From the NCBI GenBank assembly GCA_035567755.1, contig DATMPH010000026.1:533-64532 (forward strand): 64,000 nt of DNA. Reading direction: 5' to 3'. This DNA comes from Rhizomicrobium sp. GTDB taxonomy: Bacteria; Pseudomonadota; Alphaproteobacteria; Micropepsales; Micropepsaceae. Positions 35,309 to 62,800 of this stretch are shown here, piece by piece. A program made the position numbers and the translations under genes. The notes beneath the pieces were generated by a model that saw nothing but the letters and a program-made list of their open reading frames with translations, searched no databases and had not been told where the DNA came from. Position 1 is the first letter of the stretch, and each line of letters starts with the position of its first letter.

Positions 35309-38131
35309 CTACGCCAGCGCCTGTTCCATGGCCTTGCCGAGCGCATCAAGGCCGCCCGGAAGATCATGCAGATGCAGGCGGATGGCGCGGCGGCCACGTT
35401 CGTTGAGGACCTCAAAGTCGCCCTGCGCCTGCGCCAGTTCGACGGCGCCGAAGGTCAAATTGCGGTTCTCGATCGGCATCTCGTCCGAATGGTCGCAGGT
35501 GAGAGTGAGAAAGACGCCGCTGTTGGGGCCTCCCTTGTAGGCCTGTCCGGTGGAATGAAGGTAGCGCGGTCCAAATCCCAGACACGTCGCGACGTGTTTT
35601 CGGTCGCGCACCTTCATCCGAATGGCCTGCAACGTTTTCTCATGCTGCGGTGAGCGCTGCATATAGGCGAGGAGCGCGAAGTAGTCATTCGCCCGAACGC
35701 GCGCGAGATGGATTCGAAGACAGTCGGCGAGAGACCGCGCCCGGGAAATCTCGTCCCTGCACAGCGTGTCCGCGTAGACCGCAACGCCGTCATGCACAAA
35801 ATCCGGCCGCGCCGGTCGAGCGGATTCGGCGTGCTCGATGCGATCGGTCAATTGACGCGTGCGCTGCTTGCTCGCCTCGACATCGGGCTGATCGAAAGGA
35901 TTGATCGAGAGTACGGCGCCCGCAACGGCGACCGCCATCTCCCAGACAATGAATAGCTGCGCGATTTGATACGTGTCTTCGATCGCGAGGCGCAAGACGG
36001 GGTGGCCGCGGTCCTGCAGGTCCTGCAGCAGCGTGCCGCAATCGTCGTCGCCCGACAGATGAAGATAAACGAAAACCCGGTCGGCGCCGTAGGATTCCGG
36101 CCCGCTCAGGATTTCACCATCGATCGGAACAAGACCTTTGCCCTGCTTTCCGGTGGATTCGGCGAGCAATTGCTCCAGCCATGCGCCCATGCTGGCGATT
36201 GAGCGTGATGCGACGATCGTAATCTTGTCGCGCTTGAAATCCCGGGCGAGAACGCCCAGCGCCACACCGAGGCGAACTCCCGGATTGGCCGAAGGCGGAA
36301 CGAGGGCCTCGCAGCTCTGCGTCATGCGCGCGGCGTCTGCGAGGAGACGCTTGATGTCGAGACCGATCAGGGCGGCGGGTACAAGGCCGAATTTCGACAG
36401 CACGGAGAATCGTCCGCCAATTGCGGGATCGCCATGAAAGACGTGCAGAAATCCATTGCGCCGCGCCGATTCGTCCAATGGGGTGCCCGGATCGGTAATG
36501 GCAATGAAGTGCTTTGCAGCGGATCCGTTCGATGCGGTATCGCTCGTCAAGCGAAGAAAGTGGTCCTGAAGGATGTTTGGCTCGAGCGTGGTGCCCGATT
36601 TCGAACTGACCAGGAAATATGCGTCCCCGGGAGACAGTGCGCGCTCGACCGCGCGGATCTGGTCGGGATCCGTTGAATCCAGAACTGTCAGATGCGGCCA
36701 ACCCTGCCGATGACCGAAAGTGTCGCCAAGGACCTGGGCCCCCAGGCTCGATCCTCCCATCCCGAGCAGGACAACCTGACCGAGGTGCGCGCCCTCACTT
36801 TTCTGCGCCAGTGCGTCGAGCGGCGCCCGATTGGCGGCTTCGTGCCGCGCGATCTCGAGCCAGCCGAGCCAGCGATCCTCGTCGGCGCCCGTCCATAACG
36901 ATTTGTCATGCGCCCACAGACGGCGAATTTTTCCTTCGCGCGTCCAGAGCGCGAGTTCGGAATCTACGGCGTTCTGGGCATCGCCCAGGGAGGCCGTGAA
37001 ACGCAATAGCCTTCCGTTGAGAATCGTGGCGCGCTTTTCGGACAGGGCCGCGTAAAGCGCGTCTGCCGCTTCGGCAAATTTCTCGACCCCTTCGGTCACC
37101 AACTCGTCGGTTATCCTGTCAAGCGAGACGTTGACGGTTTGCAGACGCGCGAGCACGGTGCGTGCTTCCTCCACTCCGGCGTCCAGAGAGGCGGTCGGGT
37201 GGCCGTGATCGCGAAACGCACTCAGCGTTTCGAGCGGAATCGTGTTCACCGTGTCGCGCCCGATGAGTGCGTCGATGTAGATGGTGTCGGGATACGATTT
37301 GTTCTTGGTGCTGGTTGAAGCCCAGAGAAGGCGTTGCGGCCTCGCACCCTTCGCTGCCAGCTTCGCCCACCGTTCGCCGGTGAAGACCTGTTTGAAATAC
37401 TGATAGGCGAGTTTGGCGTTGGCAATTGCCGCTTTGCCCAGCAATGATTCGACGCTGCTGCGTGCTCCGCCGTCGTGTGCGAGCACGTTTTCCAGCTCGC
37501 CGTCGACCTTCGAATCGATTCGGCTGACGAAAAAGCTTGCAACGCTCGCAATCGAGTCGAGCCGGCTGTTGCGCGAGAGCGTCTCGAGGCCTGCCAGAAA
37601 GGCTTCGACAACCTCCTCATACCGGCTGCGTGCGAACAGAAGCGTGATGTTGACATTGATGCCTTCGCCGATGAGCGTGCGAATCGCCGGAAGGCCTTCG
37701 CGGGTGCCCGGAATCTTCACCATCAGGTTCGGCCGGCCGATTTCGCGCCAAAGGGCGCGCGCTTCGGCGACGGAAGCAGCCGTGTCATAGGCAAGATATG
37801 GCGAGACCTCGATGCTGATATAGCCATCCACCCCGTGACTCGTGTCGTAGACGGGACGCAAAGCATCTGCCGCGATCTGTATGTCGCGCACGCTCAGATG
37901 GCGAAAGATGGTGCCTACTCCGCAACCGTCGGAGACGCAGCGCTTGATGTCGGCATCGTATTCCGTGCCGTGGCTTATGGCTTTCTCGAAGATGGACGGG
38001 TTGGACGTCATCCCTTTGAGTCCATCCTCATCCAGCAGCTGCCGGAATTCCGCGCTCCCGAGAAATTCGCGGCTCAGAAAATCGAGCCAGACGGATTGGC
38101 CGAACTGCTCGAGCTGTCTCACGCGGTTCAT
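35309..38131 (-). CDS. tal-pgi: bifunctional transaldolase / glucose-6-phosphate isomerase
   Basis: [31 protein letters not shown]; then [33 protein letters not shown]. Confidence 0.93.
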
Positions 38132-62279: not shown

Positions 62280-62721
62280 GCGTCAGATGGCCGGATGGCC
62301 GCCCGCCTACGCCCTTCGGGCTACGGCGCGACAAGCCCGTTGTGGGCCTGCCGCGCCGAAGTCGCGAAGCGACGAAGGCGGGAGGAAAGTCCGGGCTCCA
62401 CGGAGACACGGTGCCGGATAACATCCGGCGGGGGTGACCCCAGGGATAGCGCCACAGAAAACAAACCGCCCGGCGAAGCCCCGAAAGGGGCGAAGACGGG
62501 CAAGGGTGAAACGGTGCGGCAAGAGCGCACCGCGCGGACGGCAACGGACGCGGCACGGCAAGCCCCACCGGGAGCAAGACCAAATAGGGACGGCGCACGA
62601 CCCGTTTCCGGGTTGCCGTCCGGGTCGGTCGCGCGAGGCGTCCGGTAACGGGCGTCCCAGAGGAATGGCCATCTCTCCGCGAAAGCGGGGAACAGAACCC
62701 GGCTTACAGGCCATCTGACGC
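62280..62721 (+). ncRNA. rnpB: RNase P RNA (type A)
   Basis: GAGGAAAGTCCGGGC, AGGGTGAAACGGTGCGGCAAGAGCGCACC, CAGAACCCGGCTTA; P1 GCGTCAGATGGCC/GGCCATCTGACGC. Confidence 0.97.
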
Positions 62722-62800
62722 ATTATTGCCGCCCAATTCTGTCACCATGGGGAGCCAAGGCCGCCATGTATTTGGCTCACGGCGCCCCCAAAAAAACTCG

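Follow-up and report, generated by a model that had tools for sequence, protein, structure and literature searches.

Two peripheral helices of the RNase P RNA gene (rnpB) of this Rhizomicrobium sp. are made of a hairpin repeat that also occurs directly at the 3' ends of tRNA genes. In the 64,000-nucleotide stretch of DNA analyzed here (the window), helix P3 of rnpB consists wholly of a full-length copy of this module, and helix P12 holds a truncated one. These rnpB copies are an ectopic subset of a tRNA-end hairpin repeat family. The module is probably a non-autonomous palindromic repeat whose home is the tRNA 3' end, where it overlaps the CCA and often stands before a gene for a 79-amino-acid GIY-YIG protein.

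The repeat module in P3 and P12

A cmscan search placed rnpB, coding for a bacterial class A RNase P RNA, at positions 62283-62722 on the plus strand of the window (RF00010, RNaseP_bact_a; 277.4 bits against a gathering score of 100, E = 1.7e-89), with the match spanning model positions 1-367 without truncation. This was the single RF00010 match in the whole genome, so that it is the sole rnpB copy of the assembly (3.87 Mb, 61.6% G+C, 65 contigs, completeness score 100%); the protein subunit gene rnpA (PF00825) lies elsewhere in the same genome, on contig C14 (C14:60330-60638). All core elements of an ordinary class A RNase P RNA with extended peripheral helices are present, including GAGGAAAGUCC after P3, ACAGAAYCCGGCUUA near the 3' end, and a 7-bp CCCGCCU/AGGCGGG helix that closes P3 at its base. 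However, at 440 nt the gene is among the longest in the genus, where most rnpB genes measure 360-390 nt with a P3 of 15-25 nt (for example, UGGGGGCGAAAGCUCCUGG) and a P12 of about 29 nt. In the cmscan alignment the P3 loop has an insertion of 61 nt and P12 is longer by about 12 nucleotides, and this extra length is repeat-derived.

P3 (62302-62382, plus strand) is in its entirety an 81-nt, P3-type copy of the module, seen as an insertion relative to Rfam and scored at 88 bits by our model R1. It opens with a 5' terminal inverted repeat, CCCGCCU (62302-62308), which forms the 5' strand of the P3 base helix by pairing with the 3' terminal inverted repeat, AGGCGGG (62376-62382), the universal GAGGAAAGUCC following directly; across 17 rnpB copies these base pairs are either invariant or covarying. 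Three hairpins lie between the terminal repeats. The first, hp1 (GCCC-UUC-GGGC, 62311-62321), shows compensatory changes among copies (GCCC/GGGC, GCAGC/GCUGC and GUUGC/GCAAC). The second, hp2 (CGGCGCGACAAGCCC-GUUGU-GGGCCUGCCGCGCCG, with CGGCGCG...CGCGCCG; 62324-62358), corresponds to inverted repeat I2, covaries at several pairs and holds the most conserved core of the family, CUACGGCNCGRCAAGCC. The third, hp3 (GUCGC-GAA-GCGAC, 62361-62373), is flanked by GAA on both sides, giving the pattern CGAAG...CGAAG, and likewise shows compensatory pairs (UCGC/GCGA, CCCC/GGGG and GCGC/GCGC). The P3 copy thus has, in order, the parts that define the family: the terminal repeat CC(C/A)GCCUWCG ... CGWAGRCGGG, hp1, hp2 and the GAA-flanked hp3. 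Two further family traits, a location at a tRNA CCA end and an adjacent small GIY-YIG ORF, are absent from it, and neither tblastn of the genome nor inspection of the ORFs near rnpB retrieved a GIY-YIG gene in its vicinity.

P12 occupies 62466-62505 on the plus strand, and 62468-62501 within it is a short copy of the module (GCCCGG-CGAAG-CCCC-GAAA-GGGG-CGAAG-ACGGGC) comprising the base stem, the GAA/GAA loop and hp3, without hp1 and hp2. Its flanks and hp3 match the 89-93-nt P12 modules of five congeners (G013, G020, G065, G175 and G043), and 30 of its 34 nucleotides are identical to the trailer of the organism's own tRNA-Ala(GGC). The initial annotation had proposed a branched P3 with three sub-hairpins and a P12 of the same architecture; its positions and sequences for both helices agree with direct reading, with cmscan and with the folding scores given below, and the shared architecture extends to homology, the P12 of this genome being equivalent to congener modules minus hp1 and hp2.

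Folding against shuffled sequences gave z = -5.3 for the P3 segment and z = -3.4 for P12. Taken singly, the present P3 has its nearest-neighbour minimum in a long rod (-57.2 kcal/mol), with the three-hairpin junction at -50.9 kcal/mol; 10 of 11 P3-type copies are predicted to fold as rods in this way, and most P12-type copies as junctions. RNAalifold on the 11 P3 copies, with no structure imposed, retrieved the base stem and the three hairpins with 7 compensatory pairs, and in a model-fitted alignment of 17 rnpB copies 86% of the cells were Watson-Crick, with at least two Watson-Crick types at 11 of 31 pairs. Because of these two results, which also bear out the three sub-hairpins originally proposed, we favour the three-hairpin (four-way) junction as the probable family consensus and keep the single-sequence rod as an alternative fold only. 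A CCCGCC/GGCGCGG pairing that RNAalifold returned from three copies only was rejected, as larger sets give the four-way junction. The compensatory changes would also fit selection on the RNA. However, G·U and A·C cells are equally frequent in the module helices of the 17 copies (26 each), which appears to fit better with a palindrome preserved, at least in part, as DNA.

Single rods of -46 to -61 kcal/mol are predicted for many P3 copies, and a long, nearly perfect GC-rich helix of this kind is an RNase III-type substrate. Bacterial rRNA intervening sequences are removed by RNase III, and the module, which caps a helix whose base would keep the pieces joined, might similarly be excised to leave a fragmented but functional RNase P RNA. 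We regard this as very unlikely: P3 and P12 extensions of similar size are generally known to be retained in other RNase P RNAs.

Patchy distribution among relatives

To place the module we compared about 180 rnpB genes from 200 sampled congeners, using direct reading of the rnpB helices and a covariance model built from three rnpB copies only. This model gave matches in 57 of 201 congeneric genomes, and the matches fell into two classes, located either in rnpB P3/P12 or directly at tRNA 3' ends. The module is present in one or both of the two helices in about 8% of the 200 sampled congeners and in one sister genus. It is found in P3 of the present genome (G000) and of G065, G096, G044, G078, G171, G108, G071, G048, G178, G017 and the sister-genus member G519, and in P12 of G013, G020, G065, G124, G175 and G043; G065 has full copies in both helices, and G096 shares with the present genome the combination of a full P3 and a short P12 copy.

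The present P3 is identical to that of G065 at 75 of 82 positions, and to full-length congener P12 modules at 58-63 of about 85 (z = 6.7-9.6 against shuffles). Judged from these alignments, the resemblance of P3 and P12 is one of homology and not of chance. Within G065, P3 and P12 agree at 59 of 86 positions, and the P12 of G065 agrees with that of G013 at 77 of 85. The P3-type and P12-type copies thus appear as distinct sub-lineages, which would therefore reflect two colonizations of rnpB, as the initial annotation had suspected when it wrote of the ribozyme being entered "possibly twice".

In a tree built from the rnpB core, whose deep branches are poorly resolved, carriers are scattered beside non-carriers, with supported carrier/non-carrier pairs in G043/G102, G017/G012, G108/G060 and G175/(G010+G144). 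Over some 230 nt downstream of P12, G043 and G102 hardly differ, and between ...ACCGCC and GUAAGG... one has a 93-nt module and the other a 43-nt native helix; G017 and G012 present the same filled versus empty contrast at P3. In these pairs the native helix is replaced whole, never interrupted, between conserved rnpB flanks. The long P3 is not ancestral: short helices prevail among congeners, carriers are dispersed over the tree, and the filled and empty sites are clean. All P3 copies abut the same flanks, and their scatter could reflect a few old insertions followed by recombination or loss rather than repeated targeting.

Other enlarged P3 helices were seen in the genus. A second, unrelated hairpin of about 65 nt, CCCCGCCACUA...UAGUGGCGGGG, fills P3 in G006 (locus L015), G144 (L072) and G206 (L073) and is also present in P12 of G206, and a comparable long P3 hairpin, on a different base, occurs in G162 (L070). 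A pattern search of its host genomes found this hairpin nowhere outside rnpB, and we therefore rejected it as a member of the tRNA-end family: it is confined to rnpB and is not a dispersed repeat. The CCCGCC/GGCGGG base is common to both. A third P3 variant of 42-50 nt, UUGGCUUCGUGGCUGCGUGCAAACGCAAAGUGCGGGGCUGGG-like, occurs in G018 (L032), G084 (L079), G119 (L077), G139 (L078), G043 (L047) and G102 (L075) and has the look of an ordinary, lineage-specific P3 with bulges.

The helices P3 and P12 vary more than any others in the RNA, and the rnpB-confined CCCCGCCACUA-type hairpins are an example of unrelated expansions in this genus, so one could ask whether the present module likewise arose by ordinary lineage-specific helix growth, through slippage or intragenic duplication, with its likeness to tRNA trailers a GC-rich coincidence. 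This account is already contradicted, and we give it hardly any weight: tRNA-end copies are recovered by the model built from rnpB alone, with per-genome E values of 1e-7 to 1e-8, the same base stem and the same order of hp1, hp2 and hp3, the alignment z-scores are 7-10, the P3 and P12 modules of one genome are not each other's closest relatives, and the native helix is replaced, not extended.

Copies at tRNA 3' ends and their GIY-YIG neighbour

In the genome under study the family is low-copy. BLAST of the rnpB-type module and an nhmmer profile of the rnpB-type copies both gave only borderline matches in it outside rnpB, with nothing else significant. The conclusion that the genome has no copies elsewhere was overturned by a structure-aware scan, by reading of the tRNA trailers and by a profile derived from these trailers. 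Scanning for CGAAG-stem-loop-stem-CGAAG retrieved an array on contig C62 and, immediately downstream of tRNA-Ala(GGC) on contig C19, a sequence nearly the same as P12. When all 50 tRNA trailers of the genome were read, the family was present in at least six of them, those of Ala(CGC), Ala(GGC), Ala(UGC), Ile(GAU), Val(UAC) and Tyr(GUA), and the trailer motifs were enriched at least 8-fold after tRNAs (8 observed versus 0.99 expected). The trailer-derived profile recovered the C62 array independently (E = 8e-8). Neither the module nor the tRNA trailers correspond to an Rfam family.

The C62 array (C62:168860-169060, minus strand; locus L038, about 2360-2560) lies outside the window, is intergenic and contains roughly three family units. 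It follows "...GACCGCACCA" / "...CUCGACCGCACCA", which looks like the remnant of a tRNA 3' end, and neither ARAGORN nor Rfam called a tRNA or tmRNA before it. No tmRNA gene was called by ARAGORN (tmRNA mode) anywhere in the 65 contigs, despite the assembly's completeness score of 100%; a two-piece tmRNA missed by ARAGORN, or an assembly gap, may account for this. Two of the family trailers, also outside the window, belong to an apparent rRNA-operon spacer pair, Ile(GAU) and Ala(UGC), at C13:308016-308360, and since both spacer tRNAs carry one, the element is probably transcribed there within the rRNA precursor. Elsewhere outside the window, two copies of a 44-nt palindrome, UGCCUGCGCGAAGCCGAAGCUUCGCUUCGGCGAAGGCAGGCA, built from CGAAG units, are found at C48:129038 and C53:22887.

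The heptamer GCGAAGC, which is present in hp3 (62361-62373) and in the first trailer hairpin, occurs 10 times in the 50 trailers versus 1.7 expected. As DNA, d(GCGAAGC) is reportedly an exceptionally stable mini-hairpin (Hirao et al.), and its recurrence hints at a structure formed in single-stranded DNA.

The same association is seen in other genomes. Among congeners, 15-16 of 17 matches outside rnpB abut the 3' end of a tRNA, the preceding tRNAs being Val, Ala, Leu, Cys, Lys and Met; at the class level a tRNA was called in 6 of 9 loci fetched, and in all 6 of these the non-rnpB match was tRNA-adjacent. The non-rnpB copies of congeners start with the tRNA's own CCA (CCA-GCCUUCGC...) and end in ...GCGAAGGCGGG, so that the terminal inverted repeat of the element opens with the CCA; its two arms, CCAGCCUUCG and CGAAGGCGGG, pair apart from a single A·G mismatch. 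The corresponding terminal repeat reads CCCGCCU(U/A)CG in rnpB and CCAGCCU at tRNA ends. The initial annotation, in suggesting that a repeat family had colonized an essential ribozyme and might recur beside tRNAs, had set this against two other outcomes, a lack of copies elsewhere in the genome and a long P3 ancestral to the group; neither was found, whereas copies outside rnpB, patchy carriers and filled and empty sites were.

In 7 of 14 sampled tRNA-linked loci, an ORF of 79 amino acids starts 13-93 nt after the element. It codes for a single-domain GIY-YIG protein (PF01541, E of about 1e-14 to 1e-15) for which NCBIfam has no model, and its nearest solved structure is the UPF0213 protein BH0048 (1ZG2). 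Most loci have the element on just one side of the nuclease gene. When the family protein was used in tblastn, the only GIY-YIG gene of this type in the present genome was retrieved at C6:37585-37827, where it is frameshifted. It lies outside the window within C6:37399-38003, in the order tRNA-Tyr, family trailer, GIY-YIG ORF in two frames (37598-37678 and 37681-37827) and tRNA-Gly. The gene is thus apparently a pseudogene, and because it is the only one, the repeat family looks inactive in this genome.

The 18-nt core of the tRNA-type element, GCUACGGCUCGGCAAGCC, has exact matches in at least 120 contigs across several phyla. Among the matches listed are Bradyrhizobium, Rhizomicrobium, Phenylobacterium, Reyranella and many further Alphaproteobacteria, as well as Verrucomicrobiota, Vicinamibacterales (Acidobacteriota) and one betaproteobacterial metagenome-assembled genome (MAG). 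Some of the cross-phylum matches in MAGs may be mis-binned; the isolates with the core include Chthoniobacter flavus (Verrucomicrobiota) and Bradyrhizobium. Among 87 core matches, 29 stand right after a tRNA and 11 have a GIY-YIG ORF within 900 nt.

The two kinds of site occupied by the module, rnpB and tRNA 3' ends, belong to the enzyme and the substrate of one reaction, and the base helix of the module takes in the CCA at tRNA ends. Together with the covariation of the helices and with loops that are often UUCG- or GNRA-like, this would suit a functional RNA domain, in which a common factor or RNA-RNA docking couples RNase P to its substrates, or in which the CCA is masked until processing. 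Such an RNA role linking the enzyme to substrate trailers is disfavoured, and we consider it very unlikely. Only about 8% of congeners have the module in rnpB, and in differing helices; tRNA-linked copies often occur without an rnpB copy and vice versa, with no obvious co-occurrence. Within the helices G·U does not exceed A·C, and the base helix of P12 copies retains two C·A mismatches. In addition, copies that are tandem or truncated look like selfish DNA, as does the decayed nuclease gene.

Known systems and a possible route into rnpB

That repeats can colonize peripheral helices of rnpB is already known from P12 of cyanobacteria, where short tandemly repeated repetitive (STRR) sequences were reportedly found in the RNase P RNA of heterocyst-forming species (a finding attributed to Vioque, 1997). 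A further text names STRR once and describes P12 as "sometimes dispensable (e.g. in cyanobacteria [108])" (PMC2858038). In both cases a genome-wide repeat family sits in a peripheral rnpB helix and is tolerated by the ribozyme. However, STRR are tandem heptamers, and the present module is a palindromic multi-hairpin unit of about 80 nt; TRF found no tandem repeats in 62302-62505, and thus no STRR-type heptamers. Unlike STRR, the module is found in both P3 and P12, and it is associated with tRNA 3' ends and a GIY-YIG gene.

A small single-domain GIY-YIG protein genetically linked to a hairpin-forming repeat family is also the arrangement of the Ssn nucleases with their NTS/SRM hairpin repeats, whose IS-like layout was noted by the authors (Chenal et al. 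2025, PMC11893778). The Ssn system is defined by homology to SsnA and site-specific cleavage of ssDNA; the likeness here lies in the GIY-YIG domain and the linkage to a repeat. The published SRM pattern, HGTCWYN(0-2)YYVSBRHN(0-5)WNVSBRGN(0-2)RNCYNB, matches none of the nine family copies of the present genome, and we therefore rejected the module as an SRM; genome-wide the pattern gives 84 matches, versus 44-56 in local shuffles. The present repeat differs further in usually lying on one side of the nuclease gene only, and in its linkage to tRNAs, a term with 0 occurrences in the text of that paper (PMC11893778).

Free-standing GIY-YIG homing endonucleases located in tRNA gene clusters, such as SegB of phages T4/T6, provide a second parallel (PMC13096335). 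Here too a GIY-YIG gene lies beside tRNA genes, and spread by gene conversion would give whole-helix replacement. The 79-aa protein is, unlike these, chromosomal and accompanied by a structured repeat; Seg enzymes are phage-encoded and larger, with DNA-binding domains. Short palindromic repeats that spread in genomes include the REP/REPIN elements with their RAYT transposases and the Rickettsia palindromic elements. The present family resembles these in being tolerated inside functional genes and possibly mobilized by one dedicated enzyme. It differs from REP/REPIN in that this putative enzyme is of the GIY-YIG and not the Y1 HUH type, and in its strong preference for stable-RNA genes. A search of the literature on GIY-YIG proteins with tRNA-linked repeats and on repeats in rnpB found no description of the family, which appears to be undescribed.

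We infer movement of the element, and a part of its putative nuclease in that movement, from the sequence comparisons given above. There would have been at least two entries into rnpB, one each for P3 and P12. The module may then have spread or persisted among relatives, most simply by homologous recombination with the conserved rnpB core serving as homology arms. Whole-helix replacement and scatter among close relatives fit gene conversion or homologous recombination of rnpB alleles, whether aided by the nuclease or not, and nuclease cuts possibly assisted the spread among alleles. Microhomology may contribute as well: rnpB has CCGCC at the base of P12 and GCCGC ahead of P3, and the element has CCNGCC.

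In the RNA, the module would probably be a passenger that is transcribed and then sits above P3 as a four-way junction or a rod. The ribozyme would tolerate it for two reasons: the terminal inverted repeat, CCCGCCU/AGGCGGG, restores the base of the replaced helix, and catalysis does not depend on the distal parts of P3 and P12, which are dispensable in other bacteria. A more far-reaching reading, which we advance tentatively and hold somewhat less likely to be right than wrong, is that the module is the non-autonomous end-piece of an undescribed class of mobile elements, present across several phyla, whose only protein would be the GIY-YIG protein of about 79 aa. Such elements would home to hairpin-forming stable-RNA genes, mainly to tRNA CCA ends, and would overwrite P3 or P12 helix-for-helix in a sequence-directed manner.

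These observations, with their clean filled and empty sites, indicate that a selfish hairpin element can take the place of whole helices in an essential ribozyme gene without putting it out of use. They tie the rnpB insert to a widespread and apparently undescribed family on tRNA CCA ends near a minimal GIY-YIG gene. Variation in rnpB length and helices in these bacteria is thus partly repeat-driven, which bears on covariance models and on rnpB-based typing. Many tRNA 3' trailers of Alphaproteobacteria and Verrucomicrobiota carry strong structure that pairs with the CCA end, and 3' processing must cope with it. If the link to the nuclease is real, the family would offer a small, testable model for how hairpin repeats choose safe sites in stable-RNA genes.
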